Shown here in pieces: positions 8,751-24,900 of a stretch of DNA of 45,520 nt (the stretch's first letter is position 1; each line of letters opens with the position of its first letter). The DNA is from a virus. Its lineage: Duplodnaviria; Heunggongvirae; Uroviricota; Caudoviricetes. The notes beneath the pieces were generated by a model. The model made no database searches. It was not told the origin of the DNA and saw nothing but the letters and a program-made list of their open reading frames with translations. The DNA lies in IMG/VR virus record IMGVR_UViG_2579778748_000005; one strand, given 5' to 3'. The position numbers and the translations under genes are program-made.

Positions 8751-8978
8751 TTATTCTCCGGTGTGGGGCGCTTTATTATTCTCGTGAATTGCCATAGCCT
8801 TATTGAGTTCATCAATAACAGGTGTCAATAATGTCTGAACAGCGGCAAACATTAATGATGAATGATCTTCGCCACCTTCCGGCACTTCAATTAATTTAAT
8901 TAACAACGCATTCATTTCGCGTGCTTTAATTAATGCGTTTTCAGAGTGGATTAATACTTCAAAAGGGATTTTATGCAT
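8751..8978 (-). CDS. Hypothetical protein, 75 aa
   Basis: ATG at 8978 with GGGAGA SD; AT-rich coding DNA. Confidence 0.5.
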   Translation of the reverse strand: MHKIPFEVLIHSENALIKAREMNALLIKLIEVPEGGEDHSSLMFAAVQTLLTPVIDELNKAMAIHENNKAPHTGE

Positions 8979-9201
8979 CACAAATTTTCTCCCTTATTCT
9001 TTTAATGTCCTCATTAAGGATGTCTGTAACTTTTATCAGCGAGTTTTTGGCAATTATTTTTATTGTTTTAAGTTTTCTTTTGTCGTGCTCCGACTGTGAT
9101 TTTCTCTCCATAATCTCCACCATGTGGGTAACATCAACGAGCGCACGTATCAGTATTTGCATTGCTTCTTCTGCTGCGTCCGGTGTGGTTTTATTGTGCA
9201 T
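8971..9201 (-). CDS. Hypothetical protein, 76 aa
   Basis: ATG at 9201 with AGGGAGA SD; overlaps the next gene by 8 nt. Confidence 0.5.
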   Translation of the reverse strand: MHNKTTPDAAEEAMQILIRALVDVTHMVEIMERKSQSEHDKRKLKTIKIIAKNSLIKVTDILNEDIKRIREKICDA

Positions 9202-9243
9202 AGGTTTCTCCCTGGCGGATTTTTGCAGCGAATACAGCAACAC

Positions 9244-9584
9244 AACCGGACGGGCAACGGCTACGCGCTTCGCGTTCCGTCCAGGCGGTTACGTGGATGA
9301 TTTGAGATTCTCCGGCACTCAGGGCCAGAAAACGCCACACAAAGGCCGTTTGTGTGTGTACAAGGTGTGGTATATGATTTACAGCAACCATAAATTTTTC
9401 CTCTCTATAGTGTTTGTGGTTAGACGCCCCGTATGTGTTTCCGGCACTGCGGGGCGTTGCTCTTTGTATTTCAACAATCCTTTCGGTGTGTTTCATGTTA
9501 TGAGCGCATGAAACACACGTCAAGGCTTTTTGTATTTCTTTTTTTGTGTATACTGAAACACACCGATGATTAGGAGTTTCAGAA
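9244..9584. promoter_or_regulatory. Divergent control region with a 12-bp perfect inverted repeat GTGTGTTTCATG-N9-CATGAAACACAC (9486..9518) and extra GAAACACAC half-sites
   Basis: Palindrome and half-sites (9553..9562, about 9345..9360) seen directly between the minus-strand operon and the plus-strand RHH gene. Confidence 0.5.
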
Positions 9585-9890
9585 ATGGCAACGTCTAACA
9601 AAAACGCAAAATCACAACTGACAACTGTCAGAGTCCCACTAGATGTTATGCAAGGGATGGAATCCGTTAAGCTGGACGGCGAAAGCAATGCCGGATTTAT
9701 CGTAACCGCCATGCGCGGAGAAATAGCCCGCCGCCAAGCAGAAGGCAGCGGAGAAAATCCCCTTGTGTCGTCACTGGATGCCCTGGCTAAGGTCGAACAA
9801 ATCGGCATCAAAGCAGCGGAAGAAATCGGGCAGCTTGTCACCGTTGCACGCGAAGAACTCCAGCGTCGCAAGACCAAAGAACCAGAGTAA
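9585..9890 (+). CDS. Ribbon-helix-helix-like DNA-binding protein, 101 aa (candidate island repressor)
   Basis: TAGGAG SD 8 nt upstream; TVRVPLDVMQGME...GESNAGFIVTAMRGEI fits a strand-helix-helix pattern. Confidence 0.6.
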   Translation: MATSNKNAKSQLTTVRVPLDVMQGMESVKLDGESNAGFIVTAMRGEIARRQAEGSGENPLVSSLDALAKVEQIGIKAAEEIGQLVTVAREELQRRKTKEPE

Positions 9891-9932
9891 TCACCATCAG
9901 CGCCGTGGTGTAAGGTATTACGGCGCATTGCT

Positions 9933-10121
9933 ATGCAGGACAACACAATGACCGATAAAGAATTGACCAAAACATTATCACCGGCACGGAAAAGACGGCG
10001 CAGAAAGATAGAACATGAATCAGAAAGATTCGCGCCATGTGCTTTTGCCCTTGAGCAATTCCTTAAAGAGTACAGGGAAAAGCGCTCATTGCAGGTATGG
10101 CAACGAACTGAACCAGACTGA
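9933..10121 (+). CDS. Hypothetical small basic protein, about 57-62 aa
   Basis: ORF downstream of the RHH gene in the same operon; start uncertain. Confidence 0.35.
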   Translation: MQDNTMTDKELTKTLSPARKRRRRKIEHESERFAPCAFALEQFLKEYREKRSLQVWQRTEPD

Positions 10122-10213
10122 TTGCATTGCCCACCAGCCTGATAGCGGCTATCATCCCCGTGCTTATGTTTGGGATCACACACACAAACGGCGCAGCGGG
10201 TTATCTGTTCAGA

Positions 10214-10245
10214 AAGGCGGCTCCATTTCGGGGCCGCTTTTTTTA
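10214..10245 (+). terminator. Putative intrinsic terminator of the RHH operon
   Basis: Short GC stem followed by a T7 run. Confidence 0.45.
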
Positions 10246-10390
10246 TGCCTGAAAAACCCCAATTTTGTGGTTTTCCAGTCTCACCAGGGCGAACGAATCC
10301 CCGCCCACGTTCTGGCGTATATTCAATCTTCATGGTTATAGCTCTGTGTTCAGATGATTGATGTGTGGCGGCTGTGTGCCGCCAGCGTGA

Positions 10391-10579
10391 TTAATGAACT
10401 GCCTTGCAGCTATCCTTCCAGGCCAGAACCTCGGATAAAGACCAGCCAACGGAACGACCGCCAAGTTTACGACGTGATGGGAATTGTCCGGCCTTTTCCA
10501 GGCGGTAGCGACACGTACGGCTAAGGCCGGTTAGTTTTTCGCATTCTTTTTCACGTATAAACCGATCAGTGCTTAACAC
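10391..10579 (-). CDS. alpA: AlpA-family excisionase/regulator, 62 aa
   Basis: LTGLSRTCRYRLEKAGQFPSRRKLGGRSVGWSLSEVLAW matches the AlpA HTH signature as recalled. Confidence 0.8.
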   Translation of the reverse strand: MLSTDRFIREKECEKLTGLSRTCRYRLEKAGQFPSRRKLGGRSVGWSLSEVLAWKDSCKAVH

Positions 10580-10943: not shown

Positions 10944-12194
10944 TTATTTTCTTCTGGCTACTGGTAGCGTGGTTACGTTTTCATGTGTTCCCGCCAGTAT
11001 CCCTAACCGCTCCGTCCACATATCCAGCGCATTGCGTTTAGCATCCAGATAACGGGAATGATTATAAACTCGCTGCATTCCTGGCATCTGGTGGCCTGTA
11101 AGCTGCTCCACGACGTGAGGATCCACGCCTAAATCGTTCAGCATCGTTGTAAAGGTGCGCCGGATGTCATGTAGTGACCAGTGAGGGTGATTTAGCCTCC
11201 TGTGCGCTAATCTGCCGTACTGCGACACGCTTGTTTCCTGTTTCACTTCCCCCAGCAATAAGCCCGTGTGCCTGTTCTGCTCCACCAGCTGCGTGACGAA
11301 CGGCAGTATTGCTTCCGGTATGGGCCGGAATATTGCCACCTTCGTTTTGCTGTGTTCTTTCGGCACGGTCCAGAGCATTTCGGTAAAATCCCACTCGCTG
11401 ATCTCCGATAACCTCAGTTCTACCGTCCGGCATCCGAACACAATCAGGAGGCGGATTAACGCGATGTAGTAGGGGGAGAATATTTTTTTGTCCAGTGCCT
11501 GCAATAATTCGCCCAGTTCTTTGGTGTTTAAGACACGCTCGCTTATATCCGGTTTTTTCCCAACGTCCGCCACACTCATATCATCAAGAACGTTGCTGAT
11601 TGCATAGCGCCGCCTCCGGCAGAACTTAAGCGCCTGTTTGCACGTCTGTAGCAAGAATCCGGCAGTAACAGGCGTTCGCTTTGCCACCTGGTCAAAACAG
11701 GCCAGCCAGTGCCGTAGCTCGCATTTATCCAGCGGCATAGCACCAATGTGCTGTATTACGTGATTATTAAGGCGCTTTTTCAGGGCGGCATAATCCACGC
11801 GGTTTTCCTTTGCGTACGACTCAAGCCAGTAGGTGAGCGCATCGCCAACCGTTACCGGCTTTAACGCTTCCTGTACGGTGTAATTAAGCTCATGACGTGG
11901 ATTTTTCCCCTCTGCCAGCCATGCGCGACACTGGGCGGCTTTTTCCCTGGCTGATTTCAGGCTCAGATCAGGATAATTTCCCAGCTTAATGCGTTCCGGT
12001 GGTGCCCCCCTTCCCGTTCCGGCCCTGTAAGTGAAATACCAGGTTAAAAGGCCACTGGTTGAATGCCTGACGCTCAGGTTTCCACCGTCATTAAGAAAGG
12101 CTGTTTTTTGGGCGGGTGTGCCGTTGATTTTCCTCAGCTGTGTATCGCTCAGTTTGTTAAGTGCTCTGCTCATAATTTTGATTCCGGTCATCAC
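10944..12194 (-). CDS. int: Tyrosine integrase (P4-type), about 409-416 aa; start probably ATG at 12173
   Basis: C-terminal catalytic region with R...HxxR...Y (HDIRRTF, YNHSRY); next to attR. Confidence 0.92.
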   Translation of the reverse strand: MMTGIKIMSRALNKLSDTQLRKINGTPAQKTAFLNDGGNLSVRHSTSGLLTWYFTYRAGTGRGAPPERIKLGNYPDLSLKSAREKAAQCRAWLAEGKNPRHELNYTVQEALKPVTVGDALTYWLESYAKENRVDYAALKKRLNNHVIQHIGAMPLDKCELRHWLACFDQVAKRTPVTAGFLLQTCKQALKFCRRRRYAISNVLDDMSVADVGKKPDISERVLNTKELGELLQALDKKIFSPYYIALIRLLIVFGCRTVELRLSEISEWDFTEMLWTVPKEHSKTKVAIFRPIPEAILPFVTQLVEQNRHTGLLLGEVKQETSVSQYGRLAHRRLNHPHWSLHDIRRTFTTMLNDLGVDPHVVEQLTGHQMPGMQRVYNHSRYLDAKRNALDMWTERLGILAGTHENVTTLPVARRK

Positions 12195-17202: not shown

Positions 17203-17393
17203 ATAATCCCAATACCCCTCCCCGACTATCTGAATGGTCGGGGAGGCACTTCAAGCACAAAATATCATCCCTGCGCCGTTGATTACTCTGCAGGTGAAGT
17301 CGGCCACTCAATATCAGGTGCAGTTGATGTATCAACACGATTCAACAATACCCGATATTTATTCCATGCCTCCAGCAACGATCTTTCTTCCTC
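17203..17393. repeat. Direct repeat copy 1 (tfa 3' end plus downstream sequence)
   Basis: Recurs at 18316..18450 with an internal deletion; the two copies flank the methyltransferase gene. Confidence 0.6.
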
Positions 17394-17549
17394 CGTTGCG
17401 ATTTCCAGATCTACAGCATCCTGCAGTGGCGCAATATACTCACTGAATTCCTGGATGTAGAACTGTGTGGTGACGGTCTTCCAGCCATTCGGCTCCTGCT
17501 GTATCGAAGCATACCAGGCTATTTCAATATCGCTATGCTGCGGCAGCAT
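17283..17549 (-). pseudogene. Tail fiber assembly protein (Tfa) C-terminal fragment, 88 codons
   Basis: Ends ...[44 protein letters not shown], the conserved Tfa C-terminus; N-terminal about 100 codons absent. Confidence 0.7.
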
Positions 17550-17617
17550 TTAACCCCTTGTAATTCATCGCCATAATTGATTTAATTCACAAATAAAACT
17601 ATAATACGGTGAAACTA

Positions 17618-18274
17618 ATGAAAAAAAACACAGATGATGGGGCTAAAATTTACACACCACTTACCCTAAAGCTTTATGACTGGTGGGTTTTGGGAGTATC
17701 AAATTGGCTTGCATGGGGATGTCCTACAAAGGAACACCTTCTTCCACACTTTCTGGAACATTTAGGTAACAACCATCTGGATATTGGCGTTGGAACTGGG
17801 TTTTACCTTACTCACGTACCTGAGAGCAGTCTGATATCTTTAATGGATTTGAACGAAGCTAGCCTGAACGCGGCATCGACAAGGGCTGGGGAATCAAAAA
17901 TTAAACATAAAATTAGCCATGATGTTTTTGATCCTTATCCCGCGGCGTTACATGGTCAATTTGATTCCATTTCCATGTTTTACCTTCTTCACTGCCTGCC
18001 TGGAAATATATCTACAAAAAGCTGTGTAATACGCAATGCGGCGCAGGCCTTAACTGACGATGGAACTCTATACGGAGCCACAATTCTTGGCGATGGAGTT
18101 GTGCACAATAGCTTCGGTCAAAAACTGATGCGCATTTACAATCAGAAAGGCATCTTTTCAAACACAAAAGATTCCGAAGAAGGCTTAACACATATACTCT
18201 CAGAGCATTTCGAGAATGTTAAAACCAAGGTTCAAGGTACTGTAGTAATGTTTTCCGCTTCAGGGAAAAAATAG
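17618..18274 (+). CDS. Class I SAM-dependent methyltransferase, about 218 aa, cargo gene
   Basis: Motif I LDIGVGTG, acidic post-I residue (LMDLN), motif II DSISMFYLLHCLP, motif III LTDDGTLY; AT-rich relative to neighbours. Confidence 0.75.
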   Translation: MKKNTDDGAKIYTPLTLKLYDWWVLGVSNWLAWGCPTKEHLLPHFLEHLGNNHLDIGVGTGFYLTHVPESSLISLMDLNEASLNAASTRAGESKIKHKISHDVFDPYPAALHGQFDSISMFYLLHCLPGNISTKSCVIRNAAQALTDDGTLYGATILGDGVVHNSFGQKLMRIYNQKGIFSNTKDSEEGLTHILSEHFENVKTKVQGTVVMFSASGKK

Positions 18275-18315
18275 CATCCAACCGCAGCACGTTCTTGCTT
18301 AAGACGTGCTGCGGC

Positions 18316-18450
18316 ATAATCCCAATGATTACTCCCTGACAGGGTTCGTAGGCCACTCAATATCAGGTGCAGTTGATGTATCAACACGGTTCAGCAACAC
18401 CCTGCATGCCTTCCATGCCGCCAGCAATGATGTTTCCTCCTTCGTTGCAT
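18316..18450. repeat. Direct repeat copy 2
   Basis: See copy 1 at 17203..17393. Confidence 0.6.
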
Positions 18451-18454
18451 ATAC
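18329..18454 (-). pseudogene. Second Tfa C-terminal remnant, about 41 codons
   Basis: Reads ...[37 protein letters not shown] after an in-frame stop. Confidence 0.55.
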
Positions 18455-18466
18455 TGCTCACCTTTT

Positions 18467-18760
18467 TCACCCACGATTAACCAACAGCCAGACCAGCAGA
18501 CACGCCACCACCGGCACAGCAAAATCCATCAGGCTTGCCACATCCCATGCACGTGGATCAAAACCGCCCCACCACGGCATGTTAATCCGCTTGCCATGCC
18601 CGAACATTTCAATCCAGCGATATTCTGCCTGGGTGTGTTCACGCGCAATGAAGAACGTACAACCGGCTATCGCCCCGTAAGCCCAGTTTCCGGTAAAAAG
18701 ACCAGCCAGTACCTGCACCGCCACGGCACAAAGCGCATGAAGTATCGACGTGATATCCAT
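18467..18760 (-). CDS. Hypothetical membrane protein, 97 aa
   Basis: ORF with two hydrophobic segments; downstream of the tail fiber operon. Confidence 0.55.
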   Translation of the reverse strand: MDITSILHALCAVAVQVLAGLFTGNWAYGAIAGCTFFIAREHTQAEYRWIEMFGHGKRINMPWWGGFDPRAWDVASLMDFAVPVVACLLVWLLVNRG

Positions 18761-18769
18761 CTGCTATCC

Positions 18770-19048
18770 TTAAAACCACTCCCTGAGCGGGCGCTCTGGT
18801 GTAACCACCCACTCACGGAACACGGAATCCTCAAATCCATCGTCAAGAAGACGGATATTAACAAAGTACCCTTCGTTTCGCGTGTATTCTGGTTCTCCGT
18901 CATCAGAAACATCTGTCTCCCTGAACGTAAAACCAATCTCATCAACCAGAACGGCATTCTGCAGCTCTTCGTCCTCTTCCCAGTTAAGTTTCCTGAGAAA
19001 TGCCCTGAAATCTGCTTTATCACTGAAACGCAACGTGAAATCTCTCAC
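18770..19048 (-). CDS. Hypothetical acidic protein, 92 aa, coupled to the tail fiber gene (possible fiber chaperone)
   Basis: Start overlaps the stf stop (ATGA). Confidence 0.55.
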   Translation of the reverse strand: MRDFTLRFSDKADFRAFLRKLNWEEDEELQNAVLVDEIGFTFRETDVSDDGEPEYTRNEGYFVNIRLLDDGFEDSVFREWVVTPERPLREWF

Positions 19049-21108
19049 TCCACAACCTCCCCAAGCTGCGCATCTGTTAGCTCTTTATGCCAGAGACGAA
19101 AATTCCTCACATGCCCAAATAAATGGCGTAATCCTGCTGTAGTTTGTCCACCAATGCGAATGGTTGCTGTACTCCGGATATATTCCCATTTGGTTTTAGT
19201 TTCGCTGCTTAACTTACCGTTACTGACTACACATGTGGACCGTTCGGACTTTACCCGCATACCAATAAGCATTTTTTCCAGCCCGGCATTTTCATTTATT
19301 CGTCGGTCTGAACCACCTATATCGCAATACGGAAAACCGTCGTACCCACCTGATGAACCAAACCCCATTACGATCCCCGCTCCGGTTTGATGACCGCCGG
19401 TATCAAAAACACGCGGCGCTACATTTGGCGTTTTATACCAGTTCTTATGTACCTCACAAAGAACCGTAAAAGGAAGATTATAAAGGTTATTCTTGATTGG
19501 GACTGTCACCATATCGCTTGCCCGCGTTGCCGGTGCCGTCCCCGTAACAATAAAAGATGATGCGCCTGTACCAGCCTCAATCTGTGGAGTGGTTACATCG
19601 AGATAATCCCCTGATGTAACCATCTGCCCTGTATCCGGAGAATACTGGACAAAACCACCAACCGTATTTTCTGTTGTATCTGCTTTTAATGTAGCCTCAA
19701 AAAATATCCAGCCAGTTGCATCATCCTTAACAGACCTTGCTGTAACACGGCTTGTCTGACCTGTCTTGCTAATTATGCGGGTGGTAAGGTTCAGGTTTGC
19801 TGCTCCTATTGATGTCCTTACCTCCCCATCATAATGTTCAAATAAAATACGAACGGCGATATTATCAACTTCACTTTTTACCCGACAGGATATAGTTACA
19901 TGCTTTTCGTCCCCTGAAGTATCAACCCCTCCGGTACTCGAATACAGTCCGATAATGGTATGCGCTTTACTTGTACCAACAATCGAATCCTGTACGACAA
20001 ACCGACCATAATTAAACCCGAAACTATCTGTGCCTGTTTCTGTAACGTCCAGTGAAGTTGACTTATTCCACTTCGAAGGGTCTGTACTGTTCTGGAAGAA
20101 GTTCGTTCTTTGTCCCTCAATAAGCAGGCCATCACACTCAAATCGCGGCTCATTAATTTCCGCCGTTTTCAGTTCGCCAGATTTGTTGATATATGTTGCC
20201 GTTGATGCGCGACTGAAATTAACCTGTTTATCACTGGCAACCTGAACCACATTATCACCAATCTTCACTTTTTTATAACCCGGAGAATAGCCCGTAATCA
20301 TATCCAGCGAATCATTAAAGGGTATCCACACATCCGGCAGCGGCTGTAAAACATATCTGTACGGCTCTGCTGTCTGGTTTGCGTATTCTCTGGCAGCATC
20401 TTCACTTGCTTTTGCTGCCGTCTGGCTTGCTGCCGATGCTTTCGCCGAGTTCGCCGCCGCTGTTTCGCTCACCTTTGCGTTGGCTTCACTGTCTTTGGCA
20501 TTCGTCTCACTGGTTTTCGCTGCCGTCTGGCTGGATTTTGCGTTTTTTTCGCTGGCCTTTGTGGCTGTCTCGCTATTTTTCGCGCTGGTTTCTGATTTTT
20601 TGGCTGCTGTCGCGGAGTTTGCCGATGCAGTCTGCGAGGCCGCTGCCGCCTGTGCGCTGTTAGCTGCATTCGTTTCTGAGGTTTTCGCCGCATTCTTCGA
20701 TGAGGCTGCTGCCGTTTCGGATTTCTTTGCCGCCGCTGCACTCTGTGATGACGCTCCGGCATGACGTGCCACTTCATTCACCATCAGCTCAAAACGGCGC
20801 AGTGCCTCCGGACGAACATCATCCTCCGTCATGGCGCCGAGAAAATCATTCAGCGTACCTGGTCTGGAACCTTCATAGACGGTAATGGTCCCGGCATGTG
20901 AAGGCGGAAAATCTTCAACCAGCAGGGTGACGCTGTACTGGCCATACTCAACATCCATGCTGTAACGCCCGGCTTCATCCGGATTTTCAGAGGCCACCGT
21001 GTTCACCACCACCGTGCTGCTGGTCCGTCTGGCCTTCAGCACAATGGTGCAGTTCTGTACTGGTTTTCCTGTGCCATCTTTAAGCACGCCAGAAATTTTT
21101 ACTGTCAT
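19045..21108 (-). CDS. stf: Side tail fiber protein, 687 aa
   Basis: N-terminus MTVKISGVLKDGTGKPVQNCTIVLKARR matches recalled lambda Stf; Ala/Ser/Thr-rich repeat region; variant C-terminus. Confidence 0.85.
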   Translation of the reverse strand: MTVKISGVLKDGTGKPVQNCTIVLKARRTSSTVVVNTVASENPDEAGRYSMDVEYGQYSVTLLVEDFPPSHAGTITVYEGSRPGTLNDFLGAMTEDDVRPEALRRFELMVNEVARHAGASSQSAAAAKKSETAAASSKNAAKTSETNAANSAQAAAASQTASANSATAAKKSETSAKNSETATKASEKNAKSSQTAAKTSETNAKDSEANAKVSETAAANSAKASAASQTAAKASEDAAREYANQTAEPYRYVLQPLPDVWIPFNDSLDMITGYSPGYKKVKIGDNVVQVASDKQVNFSRASTATYINKSGELKTAEINEPRFECDGLLIEGQRTNFFQNSTDPSKWNKSTSLDVTETGTDSFGFNYGRFVVQDSIVGTSKAHTIIGLYSSTGGVDTSGDEKHVTISCRVKSEVDNIAVRILFEHYDGEVRTSIGAANLNLTTRIISKTGQTSRVTARSVKDDATGWIFFEATLKADTTENTVGGFVQYSPDTGQMVTSGDYLDVTTPQIEAGTGASSFIVTGTAPATRASDMVTVPIKNNLYNLPFTVLCEVHKNWYKTPNVAPRVFDTGGHQTGAGIVMGFGSSGGYDGFPYCDIGGSDRRINENAGLEKMLIGMRVKSERSTCVVSNGKLSSETKTKWEYIRSTATIRIGGQTTAGLRHLFGHVRNFRLWHKELTDAQLGEVVE

Positions 21109-21120
21109 ACTTTTCCACCA

Positions 21121-21154
21121 ATAAAAAAAGCCCGCAGCAGTGACGCCACGGGCT
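21121..21154 (-). terminator. Intrinsic terminator after lom
   Basis: AGCCCG...CGGGCT hairpin followed by a T7 run on the minus strand. Confidence 0.5.
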
Positions 21155-21259
21155 TCAGGACAGTGTAACTTTACGTTTCCTCAAACGCAGTTCACCCCAT
21201 AAGGCGGATGAACCTGCGTATCATAACAATATTTACAGAAGATAAATCGGCGTCTGTTG

Positions 21260-21859
21260 TCAGAAACGGTATCCGATACCAACAATAAATGCATCCGTTC
21301 GCCAGTCGCCACTACCGGAACCTTCATAAGCAATATCAATGGTCACGGATTCGGTCGGGTTAAACTGCACGCCAGCTCCCCACGCCAGAGACGTGTTGCT
21401 GTGGCGATCGTCATCACTTCCGGTCAGCACATCGTGCGTTTTCCCCTTGTTGTCAGTTACGCGGAGATAATCCCCGGAGAACGTCGACACACGGCTGTAA
21501 GCCACACCTGCCATCGCATAAGCACTGAACCATTCATTCACGCGTACAGATGGCCCCGCCATCACGCTGAACCAGCGGTTACGCACGGAATCTTCATGCC
21601 AGCGGGTATCGCTGTAGTGCGTTTTTTGCTCATCCTCAGCATTGGCATAACTGAAGGACGTAATCAGCCCCAGCGCGTCCGTAAACTCATAACGGTATTT
21701 CACGTTAATCCCGTTCAGATTATCGCTGCCTGGCATATCAGTGTGGGTCTGAAGATACCCGGCGCTTAGTGTGGACTGATGCTCTGCTGCGCTCGCTGGC
21801 GTACCAGCGGCAACCAGCCAGACTACTGCGGACAGAATAACAGCACATAATTTACGCAT
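21260..21859 (-). CDS. lom: Outer membrane protein Lom (Ail/Lom family), 199 aa
   Basis: Signal peptide plus beta-barrel pattern ending GIGYRF; located after J as in lambda. Confidence 0.9.
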   Translation of the reverse strand: MRKLCAVILSAVVWLVAAGTPASAAEHQSTLSAGYLQTHTDMPGSDNLNGINVKYRYEFTDALGLITSFSYANAEDEQKTHYSDTRWHEDSVRNRWFSVMAGPSVRVNEWFSAYAMAGVAYSRVSTFSGDYLRVTDNKGKTHDVLTGSDDDRHSNTSLAWGAGVQFNPTESVTIDIAYEGSGSGDWRTDAFIVGIGYRF

Positions 21860-21926
21860 AATTACCTCTCGCTTTTCTGCAATAAAAAAGGCGCCATTTC
21901 TGGCGCCCGTATTGGGGTTATAAAAT

Positions 21927-24900
21927 TCAGCTAATCGTGATGCCTGCAGTGGTTTTCTTCATCACAACAACCAGCAAATCGCTGATACTTGCTGTGGGAT
22001 ACCAGCCATTTACCCACCATGCTGATACAGAAAACTCCAGCGTCATGTGGCCGCGACCAGCAGGCATATCAATAACACCACTGTAAACCAGCGTATTATC
22101 CAGCGCGGTACGGTTATAAATTTCAGCACCGTTTTTCCGTACTATCAGGCGGCATGACGAATAAATATCGTTATTCTCCCGCTCATGTCTGGCACCGCTG
22201 AATGCCACCGCCGGAATAACAATTTGCCGGTCAAACGGCTGATCGTCATAAACCCTGACGGTAATGGTCCCTGATGGCCACCTCTCCGGTGCACGGGAGT
22301 CACGGGGGAAAGCCTTACCCACTGTTTTAACGAGATCGCCTTCAATCTGGTTTGCAGACAGTTTCCCTCTGATGACACAGTTCTCGTTAATGGTGACATT
22401 ATTGAGCGTGCCGGTATTCGCCGTGATGGCTCCACTGATATCCGCATTGCGGGCTGCCAGCCTGCCATCCGGCGTCAGGGAAAACGTAGGAGGATTGCCG
22501 GATGACGTGATGCTCACCGCAAACAGTCGCTTCAGGAACACGTCGTTCATGAACAGCTGATTCCCCTGCGCCACAAACAGCGGCGTGGTGTTGCCATTCT
22601 CCGGGGTAATCATCGCGATACGGTCAGCCTGCAGCAGAATACTGCTCAGCGTCTGACCATCAACATCCTCAATCCCCGCACCAATCCCGGCCACATAGGG
22701 AATACCGTTTTTTGTTTTCTGCACCTTCAGCATATACATGGCATTCAGCTCATTGCGCGTGTCTGACTGAACCCGCTGGATTTGCTGTATGGTCACGGCC
22801 TGGTCACCCAGTTTTTTATCCGTGGTCGAGGTAATTTCACTCCCTTTTTTATCCACGTACTGGCGGACCTGTGCTATCTGTCGGGCATTTTCTGACTGCC
22901 CCTGGCTGACAGTCTGTGAGATTTCACTGCTCACCCGGTCCACTTTCTGGCTCACCTGCGCGATGGCCAGTGTCTGGTCCTCATTCTTTTTCGCAACCAG
23001 CTGCGTGAGGCTGTTTTCCGCCTCCCCGATTTTCCGGGTCACTTCTGCGATATCCGTGTCCATCCGCTGACGGATGTCTTCTTCCAGTTGCGTGACCTCC
23101 GTACGCAGCGCTGAAGCATCAATGCGCTCTTTCAGTGCCTGGCCCAGAAGCGTCTCATCTATCAGCCCCCGGAAAATTTCCAGATACCCTTCACCATCAT
23201 TGCTGGGCTGCCCGCTGGCTTCCACAAAAGCAGATTTTCCCACCAGGTTGACGCTTCGCACGTAAAACCAGAAATCCGTCCCCGGCTTAATCCGGCTCCC
23301 CTGGACAGTCCACTGACTGCCGGTCCCCAGATAACGGGCAGATTTTTCCACCTGTGCCGTGTTCGTGATGCGTTTTTCTGAGAACCAGAATTCAAACTGT
23401 ACCGTCGGGTCATACACCGCAAGACGCGGGACCGCCGTTATCTGAAAATACCCCGGCGTCAGCTCAATGGTGGCGGGTTTTGCAGGCGCGTTAATCCGGA
23501 AGGTGGTGGTCGCAGGTTCGCCCTGCTGGCCGTAGCTGTTAATGGCCCGCACCGTCAGGGTGTATTCCCCCAGCGGCAGACCACTGAAACGGTGCTCCGT
23601 GTCTGCGGTGATGGCGGTGCTCACCAGACGGCTGTCTTCTCCGCTTCCGCTGGTCAGACGCAGACTGAAGCGCACACCCTTCACCACCCGCGGCGTGTCC
23701 CATTTCGCCTGTGCCAGATACTGACCGTCAGCTGCACTCACCTCCACCGTCAGGTGCTGCACTGCCGGTGGGATAACGCTGTTCAGGCTGCCTGACTGCG
23801 GCTCAAAGCTGGCCCCGTTATCCACAATGGCTTCTTTTTCCGGTACGTGCTGCACCGCCGTGATGGCGAACGTGCCGTCCGTGTTTTCCCGAATGGAGAC
23901 ACAGCGGAACAGGCGACGACGCAGTGACGGCAGGGAGAGTCCCCACACACCGTATGTCTCCACACCATCCGGCAGGGTGCTGACCTGTATCCGGTCAGGC
24001 GCGGGGTGTGCGGTGATGGCCACGCTCGCCGGCTTACCGCTGCCGTTAATCAGATTAACAGTGGCCGTGCCGGTCTCCGGCAGTGTCACCTCCCGGTCCA
24101 GCGTCAGGGTACGGCTGGCGGCATCGATGGACAGGACACGTCCGCCGGTCAGGGTCCCGGCATAGTCGTTATCACAGATTTCAATGATGTCACCGGGTGT
24201 GTGACGCAGCCCCTGTGACCCGAGCGTGAAATCCACCGTCTGCGTTTCCAGCAGTTCGGTCTTTATCACCCACAGCCCGGCACGGTGGGCCTGACCGCGG
24301 CTGGTACAGCCGAACGCGTCCATCTTCAGCAGGTTGCGTCCGTAGCGCAGTATGGCTTCCGGGTCTTCCACCAGTTCCGTGGAGGTCTGCCAGCCGTTCT
24401 GCGGGTCGGTGTAATTCACCTCCACTGCCGTGTGCCGGTCCTTCAGGGCACTGAAGCTGTAGCGGAAACCCACGCCGTTATCATCCACCACCACATCGCT
24501 GTTGGTGTACGGCCACACCACATCCGACGGACGGTCCTGAACGAACGTCAGCGTCTGGCCGTTCCATACCGGCATACAGCGCATCGCAGAGCAGAAATCA
24601 CTGAGAACGTCCCACGCCTTACGCTGTTGTGCCAGGTACGCATTAAAGGTCATCCGCGGCTCGGTCCCCCCGAAACCATCCGGGACCGTCTGGTCGCAGT
24701 ACTGCCCGATGGCATACAGCGCCCACTTGTCCACATCCGCCGCCCCCAGACGTTTTCCCATGCCGTAGCGCGGGTGAGTCAGCATGTCCCACAGACACCA
24801 GGCCGGGTTGTTGCTGTATGCCGGTTTCAGGCTGCCGTCCCAGATACCACTGTACGTGCGTTTTTCCGGGTCATAGTTTGACGGCACCTGGATGATGCGA

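Follow-up and report, generated by a model that had tools for sequence, protein, structure and literature searches.

A predicted ribbon-helix-helix repressor, its candidate operators and a putative cis-antisense RNA in the probable early control region of a Gram-negative PICI-type satellite

The immunity region immI of phage P22 comprises the ribbon-helix-helix (RHH) repressors Mnt and Arc, the divergent promoters Pant and Pmnt and the antisense RNA sar, and immI of phages P1 and P7 comprises the C4 RNA, icd and ant. The satellites known as Gram-negative PICIs (phage-inducible chromosomal islands) are laid out as an integration zone, a variable regulatory zone, a replication zone and a late zone (PMC6092414; PMC10111431), and some of the so-called Bro zones carry immunity RNAs of the CI/C4 type (PMC10111431). 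AlpA is a helper-induced activator of these islands: activation of the alpA promoter by a helper phage has been shown for EcCICFT073, and AlpA activates PICI genes, while the master repressor has been described as unclear (PMC6092414). Here we describe the regulatory zone of such an island in a 45,520-nt stretch of DNA (IMG/VR virus record IMGVR_UViG_2579778748_000005, referred to as the window), annotated after the PGAP annotation of a RefSeq record of 100% identity, the chromosome of Escherichia coli strain WP4-S17-ESBL-08. The zone holds a gene for a 101-residue RHH regulator, an array of candidate operators, a putative RNA antisense to the start of an icd-like gene and a long open reading frame (ORF) that runs antisense through all of these. 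We consider it probable (roughly 0.6) that the region is a three-layer early control switch of a Gram-negative PICI-type satellite.

The module combines features of three immunity regions, those of P22, P1 and P4. It shares with P22 immI a small RHH protein whose predicted operators overlap divergent promoters. In layout the protein resembles Mnt, in that an N-terminal RHH domain is predicted to be followed by a C-terminal helix (in Mnt the oligomerization helix); this is a resemblance only. Like sar, the predicted cis-antisense RNA is short, would start from a promoter inside the regulated operon and covers the ribosome site of the downstream gene. Unlike P22 immI, the window encodes a protein for which homology to Mnt or Arc could not be detected in the sequence (it did not match Pfam Arc), the regulated genes would be icd-like and replication genes instead of an antirepressor gene, and the half-sites form a 22-bp array. 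A search of the whole window against Rfam gave no match at the gathering threshold, sar included. In P1 and P7 icd is the first translated gene of its operon and its translation is controlled by an RNA covering its ribosome site, as is predicted here. C4 is a processed RNA of the same strand, with an Rfam family that is likewise not matched here, and no ant gene follows icd in the window.

The organization of satellite P4 is comparable in another respect. There, as in the window, a homologue of alpA (vis) is followed by a long ORF (eta) of which the last ~65 codons are an independently initiated Icd-like gene (kil); an internal promoter (in the window a predicted one) lies in the long ORF, an RNA-based block operates, or in the window would operate, at the kil/icd start and a primase gene is found downstream. 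P4 has no protein repressor and owes its immunity to the CI RNA, a processed RNA of the same strand that pairs with seqA and seqC, whereas the window has an opposite-strand RHH gene with operators inside the long ORF and a conserved RNA structure that is antisense. In addition, the N-terminus of Eta is an Ash-family domain, while no family was found in the corresponding extension in the window. A last relative is the type I toxin-antitoxin (TA) locus SymR/SymE, in which a cis RNA of about 80 nt, likewise folding into two hairpins and starting inside the toxin ORF, overlaps the Shine-Dalgarno sequence and start codon; homology to SymE is missing here, and the module sits within the regulatory zone of a satellite, next to a predicted protein repressor. 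The locus is a real, well-organized regulatory module and a variant of the known phage and satellite immunity switches.

The RHH regulator and its candidate operator array

The elements that concern the first layer are the following.

9585..9890, plus strand: gene of the 101-residue RHH regulator of the YlcI/YnfO family (NCBIfam and fold prediction)
9486..9518: predicted operator O_L, perfect 12-bp arms GTGTGTTTCATG and CATGAAACACAC with an N9 spacer (sequence, shuffles, co-variation)
9530..9563: predicted operator O_R, one degenerate and one exact arm, flanking the regulator's own -10 (motif comparison)
9465..9473: fifth, degenerate half-site TGTATTTCA, in 22-bp register with the array, weak on its own
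9495..9523, minus strand: P_L, predicted sigma-70 promoter of the icd-replication operon, TTGACG (9523-9518), 17 nt, TAACAT (9500-9495) (consensus match)

The 101-residue protein is a member of the YlcI/YnfO family and of the RHH (Arc/MetJ/CopG) superfamily, in agreement with the RHH pattern proposed in an earlier note on this DNA. It scored 63.2 bits (cut-off 30, E = 1.7e-17) with the NCBIfam model NF041551, which covers the 42 N-terminal residues of YlcI/YnfO. AlphaFold2 (AF2), applied to the monomer only, predicted with high confidence an N-terminal RHH domain (about residues 10-55) having the strand-helix-helix fold of ~45 residues, and a long C-terminal helix (59-98). For the C-terminal half (residues 45-86) a weak match to the helix-hairpin-helix domain of Hef/XPF was obtained (E = 0.44 with the single sequence, 0.0029 with a profile); unlike that domain, the AF2 model of this part is one continuous helix. 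Sequence searches of the PDB with the protein found no RHH protein and a Foldseek search gave nothing helpful. The ORF has 221 homologues. In the loci compared below, the proteins are well conserved save for residues 11-17, the predicted DNA-reading β-strand. The family name says little on function because ylcI of strain K-12 is found in a quite different context, between ybcW and nohD in DLP12.

The 12-bp palindrome of O_L, noticed before, is not a chance event: a perfect inverted repeat of at least 12 bp with a gap of 3-30 did not appear in any of 1000 dinucleotide shuffles of 9244-9890. The further half-sites reported near the plus-strand gene were found as well. The exact arm of O_R is GAAACACAC (9555-9563), and its degenerate arm, at about 9530-9539, has been given as TTGTATTTC (9530-9538) and as TGTATTTCT (9531-9539). 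Exact copies of GAAACACAC number four in the 45.5-kb window, three of them within 9486-9563. With one mismatch allowed the array starts at 9465, 9487, 9509, 9531 and 9554, which is a spacing of 22-23 bp with alternating orientation. The fifth half-site overlaps the U-rich tail of the predicted antisense RNA and is present also in locus L019 of the comparison set (see below) and, with its own motif, in L014. A one-mismatch copy, ATGTGTTTC (9433-9441), lies in the loop region of the terminator hairpin of the antisense RNA and was not seen in other families.

Transcription from P_L would start near 9488. The right arm of O_L is situated in the spacer of P_L beside the -35 and the left arm just downstream of the -10, around this start. 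In nearly all families inspected by eye, a TTGAC -35 was again found beside the right-hand site and a -10 followed it at 17 bp. The regulator's own -10 (TATACT, 9549-9554; TATAAT in Xenorhabdus) is located between the two arms of O_R. As the operators overlie both promoters, repression of the icd-replication operon as well as autoregulation is predicted.

Related modules were found in Enterobacter, Serratia, Erwinia, Phytobacter, Xenorhabdus and Photorhabdus and in the Escherichia phage vB_KppS-Ant. The set used for comparison consisted of 12 loci of other species, 10 E. coli islands with no more than partial matches to the region, and vB_KppS-Ant. In 20 other loci, three to five copies of a 9-mer were present in the 125 bp upstream of the RHH gene, at constant offsets from its start codon (about -98, -76, -54 and -31), and the sites keep their position over the -35 and -10 of the minus-strand promoter and over the regulator's own -10. 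The motif itself differs among some 9-11 types of β-strand and is common only to very similar strands. The following pairs of β-strand and repeated motif were read.

TTVRV: GTGTGTTTC
SLTARI: GTGTAAG/CTTACA
ISIRI: GTGATT/AATCAC
KNIRI: GTGTGTATTTA
INARF: GGGATTCA
LNARF: GGTATTCAC
VAARV: GTGTTGAACAC
LEARV: GTGTCAGCCAC
KKNIRF: TGTGCGCACA

The Xenorhabdus and Photorhabdus proteins, which are only 68-77% identical to that of the window, have the TTVRV strand and keep the GTGTGTTTC/GAAACACAC half-site despite a diverged spacer between the arms. In L008, L014 and L018 the family-specific motif occupies both arms of the second operator. The islands of E. coli O157:H7 have two GGTAATTACC palindromes at the place equivalent to O_L, beside a different RHH gene. 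The latter is an unannotated ORF of 57 residues (MSTPLEKRSPPYQMRLPEDF...) in place of the YlcI gene (L016:1798-1971, E. coli O157:H7 E32511, NZ_CP038380) with weak matches to YlcI_YnfO_N and Pfam Arc; at this site PGAP annotates the opposite strand as a partial Icd-like pseudogene.

It could be argued that the palindromes are bound by AlpA, by a repressor of the helper phage or by a host protein, and that the YlcI-like protein has an unrelated role, as perhaps in lambdoid prophages. The position of ylcI in K-12 and the activation of PICI genes by AlpA (PMC6092414) would agree with this, and the pairing of the RHH protein with the sites has been deduced from sequence comparison. One and the same AlpA accession (WP_000953272.1) is present, on the other hand, in the window, L016, L020 and L021, where the operator motifs differ and the adjacent RHH gene differs each time. 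This indicates that the motif follows the RHH gene and not alpA, and we regard binding by another factor as improbable. On the strength of the sequence comparison, the RHH protein and the array very probably form a cognate repressor-operator pair. The earlier note had seen in this region the immunity switch of the island and in the RHH protein its repressor. This core idea is well supported by the co-variation of motif and β-strand and by the constancy of the sites; the Icd-like target, the putative antisense RNA and the long ORF had been missed.

Downstream of the regulator gene two further plus-strand features complete the rightward unit.

9933..10121, plus strand: orf62, 62 residues, very basic (ORF list; PHROG 21027, E = 1.6e-15)
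10213..10245, plus strand: hairpin with T-run resembling an intrinsic terminator (sequence; weak Rfam matches of terminator type; conserved block)

The hairpin, which is without a good U-run on the minus strand, closes the RHH-orf62 unit, and orf62 is probably co-transcribed with the RHH gene. It is conserved in O157:H7 and unannotated in the identical RefSeq record. These two genes could be a type II TA pair, with the RHH protein as antitoxin, orf62 or some other partner as the toxin, and the palindromes as nothing but an autoregulatory operator. The strongest operator, O_L, overlies P_L, from which the icd operon on the opposite strand would be transcribed, and not the promoter of the RHH gene. 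Furthermore, orf62 matched no toxin family in the family searches, is not annotated beside the short YlcI versions of 59-65 residues, and is retained in O157:H7 next to a quite different RHH gene. A TA function is regarded as the least probable of the alternatives considered, and the version with orf62 as toxin was dropped as the family searches gave no support.

A 15-nt perfect inverted repeat (GCCGTTTGTGTGTGT at 9345-9359 and ACACACACAAACGGC at 10178-10192, 818 nt apart) has one copy within icd-like and the other just upstream of the plus-strand terminator. A long-range RNA pairing such as that of P4 seqA/B/C was rejected since each copy occurs independently of the other: the alpA-proximal copy stands alone in L020 and L021 and the icd copy alone in L016 and L019, and in O157:H7 the partner has four mismatches. 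Without paired conservation, the repeat is taken as a by-product of mosaic assembly.

A putative RNA antisense to the icd-like start

The second layer involves three elements.

9191..9391, minus strand: Icd-like gene, 66 residues, first gene of the leftward operon (PGAP; NCBIfam NF033153, E = 1.2e-17)
~9383..9470, plus strand: predicted cis-antisense small RNA of ~85 nt (folding, covariation, covariance model)
9350..9378, plus strand: predicted promoter of the antisense RNA, TTGTGT (9350-9355), 17 nt, TATGAT (9373-9378) (read from the sequence)

The earlier note implied that 9244-9584 is non-coding. This does not hold because the Icd-like gene is annotated at 9191-9391 on the minus strand, so that the divergent gene starts at 9391 and not at 9243; the 90-residue ORF 8971-9243, which was apparently used before, is in the annotation a 76-residue gene ending at 9201. 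The true gap is 9392-9584, and it lies itself within the 380-residue minus-strand ORF 9191-10333. The model NF033153 also matches the Kil part of P4 Eta (residues 161-208, E = 1.4e-20). By this profile the Icd-like protein is a homologue of P4 Kil; the link is visible only with the NCBIfam profile, as BLASTP of the Icd-like protein against the P4 cI/eta product gave no match.

The GC-rich hairpin that the earlier note pointed out is present at 9423/9424-9458 and is conserved. In the predicted RNA it constitutes the second stem-loop (SL2, 9423-9458), a terminator-like 3' hairpin of a plus-strand transcript, which is preceded by a first stem-loop (SL1, ~9386-9421) and a UAGA linker and followed by a U-rich tail. 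Within SL1 the predicted RNA is an exact complement of the Shine-Dalgarno sequence (9400-9405) and start codon (9389-9391) of icd-like, and it is likewise complementary to most of the ~97-nt leader counted from the predicted P_L start.

Folding was compared between the strands for 21 homologous segments of 88 nt. The plus strand folded more stably in all 21, always into two hairpins, with a mean minimum free energy of -34.4 versus -23.0 kcal/mol. RNAalifold gave a consensus of 21 pairs and -25.4 kcal/mol for the plus strand, with compensatory changes in nine pairs, versus 7 pairs and -5.9 kcal/mol for the minus strand. Many columns that are G.U on the plus strand are A.C mismatches on the minus strand; pair 47/79, for instance, is GU in 10 sequences, CG in 6 and AU in 5. 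Paired cells amounted to 95% versus 84% in shuffled alignments and the covariation score was 0.381 versus 0.193, values of which neither was reached in 500 shuffles; slid controls of the pair-count test scored at most 0.10. A covariance model built from these sequences (R1) matched the window once, at 9380-9470 (73 bits), and found an independent match in vB_KppS-Ant (L003; 75 bits, E = 9e-18) on the strand opposite the Icd-like ORF. It did not match P4.

The predicted promoter is situated within the icd-like coding sequence. Every family has a TAnnnT -10 at 5-7 nt upstream of SL1, and TGn is often found in front of it (TGGTATGAT; TGGTATAAT in L024). The locus thereby shows what is expected of a cis-antisense RNA of the sar/SymR type: a predicted promoter, a conserved structure on the antisense strand, a predicted terminator and overlap with a ribosome site. 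The best of the sub-threshold Rfam matches was symR (9386-9461, plus strand); its 24.7 bits are far below the threshold of 61 and the RNA is not a member of the symR family. These comparative data make the existence of a plus-strand antisense RNA likely. That it acts at the icd start is somewhat less certain, though still favoured.

In the immunity systems of P4 and P1 the RNA is part of the same-strand leader upstream of kil/icd (PMC10111431), and the central part of SL2 can form on both strands. The hairpins might accordingly act in the icd mRNA itself, forming a structured leader on the minus strand, either as an attenuator or as a processed RNA of the P4 CI/P1 C4 type, with no separate antisense RNA being made. 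The weak minus-strand consensus, the A.C mismatches it would have to contain and the greater plus-strand stability in every sequence argue against this, as does the plus-strand -10 box, which is conserved at a constant distance. A specific candidate, an immunity RNA of the P4 CI, P1 C4 or isrK type, was rejected: besides the lack of a match at the gathering threshold in the window, no C4 or isrK match appeared at E<=10 in 8900-10450, and the conserved structure is on the strand opposite the icd transcript. A minus-strand leader is hence considered unlikely. The P4 CI-RNA-like element, which the earlier note had kept as an option, gives way on this evidence to a putative cis-antisense layer.

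A terminator-like hairpin (CACACAAACGGCCTTTGTGTG followed by GCGTTTTCTG) was also observed on the minus strand at 9336-9356, within the icd-like coding sequence, where it overlaps the predicted -35 of the antisense promoter. It is found only in the icd type of the window, L016, L018 and L019, and with one mismatch in L017.

The long open frame between alpA and the icd-like gene

The third layer concerns the minus strand upstream of icd-like.

9191..10333, minus strand: eta-like long ORF, 380 residues (ORF list, stop counts)
10391-10579, minus strand: alpA, AlpA/Vis-family regulator (Pfam Phage_AlpA, E = 5e-17, and annotation)

The frame of icd-like is free of stop codons from 9194 to 10390, the base adjoining the alpA stop codon. 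Over these 1197 nt this frame has 0 stops, the two remaining frames of the minus strand have 19 and 25, and none of 2000 shuffles was stop-free. The frame crosses, antisense, orf62, the RHH gene, both operators and the leader before it enters icd-like. As in the P4 eta/kil nest, a longer ORF begins directly behind alpA and has the Icd-like gene as its 3' end. From alpA to icd the frame was stop-free over 321-473 codons in 18 of 23 loci, the other frames having 11-25 stops. The 18 are the window, 12 further loci (the short YlcI versions and the O157:H7 cassette included), and L006, L007, L010, L011 and L003.

Another explanation would be that the long ORF encodes a genuine large protein, Icd-like with an N-terminal extension, and that the RHH gene and the RNA are over-predicted. 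PHROG 29966, a family of 188 residues that ends in an Icd domain, speaks for such a protein. The RHH ORF, with its many homologues, its NCBIfam model and its confident fold, does not look over-predicted. The extension, moreover, is rich in Ser, Arg and Cys in the window, gave no family match outside the Icd domain in the family searches, and changes completely wherever the RHH module is swapped. An extension without a family that changes with the cassette suggests selection for an open frame and not for a protein sequence; the large protein is an unlikely explanation. alpA and the long ORF are in one reading frame with the alpA TAA stop (10391-10393) alone between them, an arrangement that suggests translational coupling as reported for P4 vis-eta. 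In P4 the upstream late promoter is the only one from which eta is translated, eta is coupled to the alpA homologue, and termination is prevented by eta translation (PMC10111431). By analogy, a read-through layer may exist here; we put the chances as about even.

The same nesting is seen in vB_KppS-Ant (L003, LR881103), an induced, packaged element of 16.5 kb with its own capsid, portal and terminase genes. An unannotated YlcI-like ORF (L003:8604-8807, minus strand) is located within and antisense to a 324-residue ORF that ends in an Icd-like domain, and the match to the antisense-RNA model (L003:8910-8997, minus strand) is likewise within and antisense to it. The putative antisense RNA and the conserved open frame that overlaps other genes in antisense are the more interesting findings at this locus.

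Island context and the proposed switch

The module belongs to an island of ~10.7 kb between phoQ and roxA, as judged from annotation and family searches. Two more of its genes are relevant here.

10944-12173, minus strand: int (annotation, ORF list)
6695-8449, minus strand: D5_N-type primase gene (annotation, family search)

The gene order is int, alpA, variable regulatory zone, primase and replication genes, and captured late genes, which is the order of the Gram-negative PICIs of the EcCICFT073 type and of the 'Bro zone' of PICIs and helper-embedded PICIs (PMC6092414; PMC10111431). On the minus strand the Icd-like gene is followed by two small ORFs, a DUF4222 gene, the primase gene, an SSB (single-stranded DNA-binding protein) gene, a PerC-family gene and finally captured major-capsid and head-decoration genes. 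This late part (window ~2000-6400, with the major-capsid and head-decoration genes, the PerC-family regulator and the SSB-like gene) contains no portal or terminase gene. The 101-residue ORF and orf62 are the sole plus-strand genes of the island core. No tRNA gene was found at the flanks. Given int, alpA, a primase/replication module and an incomplete set of virion genes, the island classifies by sequence as a Gram-negative PICI-type satellite. Past potB (window ~17280-22400; L001 20384-25501) are remnants of another prophage, namely tail-fiber assembly pseudogenes, a SAM-dependent methyltransferase gene and an IS3-family transposase gene.

Of 5426 complete E. coli genomes, 1350 contain sequence related to one part or another of the module (9191-10400). 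When the region and the Icd-like protein were compared with catalogued phages, blastn gave no match and tblastn only the one in vB_KppS-Ant.

The three layers could operate as follows. In the quiescent island the RHH protein would occupy its 9-12 bp sites, spaced 22-23 bp apart, and by this shut off P_L and limit its own synthesis: P_L would drive icd-like and the replication genes, O_L covering its spacer and start region, and O_R would cover the regulator's own promoter. Transcripts leaking from P_L would meet the constitutively made antisense RNA, which would pair with their leader, block initiation at the icd-like AUG and so prevent toxicity. The untranslated transcript would then be exposed to Rho, with premature termination, or to RNases, with decay. 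When a helper phage activates the alpA promoter, transcripts would enter the region with ribosomes that are already translating the 380-codon frame. Such transcripts would not depend on the ribosome site of icd and would escape the block at its start, as with P4 eta. They would collide with rightward transcription of the repressor gene, might displace bound repressor, and would extend expression to icd-like and to the replication genes.

Several points weigh against this scheme. The co-variation of motif and β-strand may partly reflect swapping of whole modules instead of direct recognition, and swapping by itself would not tell which protein binds the sites. The U-tract of the plus-strand terminator is interrupted and the scan tool called this terminator only marginally; the antisense-RNA promoter of the window scores below the threshold of the promoter scan. 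The long ORF is broken in five of the 23 loci (L004, L005, L009, L013 and L017), which means that read-through translation is not obligatory, and its first ATG (10333) has a weak Shine-Dalgarno sequence. All promoters, the RNA and the DNA binding have been deduced from sequence and prediction.

A search of the literature, in an incomplete library, turned up no paper on an RHH repressor of these islands, on operators for it or on a cis-antisense RNA, and the published accounts of PICIs cited above (PMC6092414; PMC10111431) mention none of these. The locus provides a concrete candidate for the master repressor of Gram-negative PICIs, with its predicted operators mapped. It also offers a candidate specificity code, in which β-strand residues can be set against half-site sequence in about ten natural variants, and a putative second layer, made of RNA and without an Rfam family. 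Given this wide distribution, its mode of action matters for the induction of satellites, for cross-immunity among islands and for the control of a toxic Icd-like effector. For the study of translation-coupled read-through and of the constraints on overlapping genes, nature offers an unusually clean case in the conserved stop-free frame that runs antisense through the repressor gene.

A broader proposal, which we put forward tentatively and at less than even odds, is that Gram-negative PICI and capsid-forming (cf-PICI) satellites carry an undescribed master switch, made up of a swappable RHH cassette and a cis-antisense RNA inside a frame that is kept open for translation only. If this is true, selection would act on the absence of stop codons across a gene that it overlaps in antisense, in many independent variants of the cassette. 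Transcription from alpA together with translation of the long frame would then flip the switch, passing through the repressor gene and its operators and past the RNA block, and would deliver the Icd-like domain and the replication genes.

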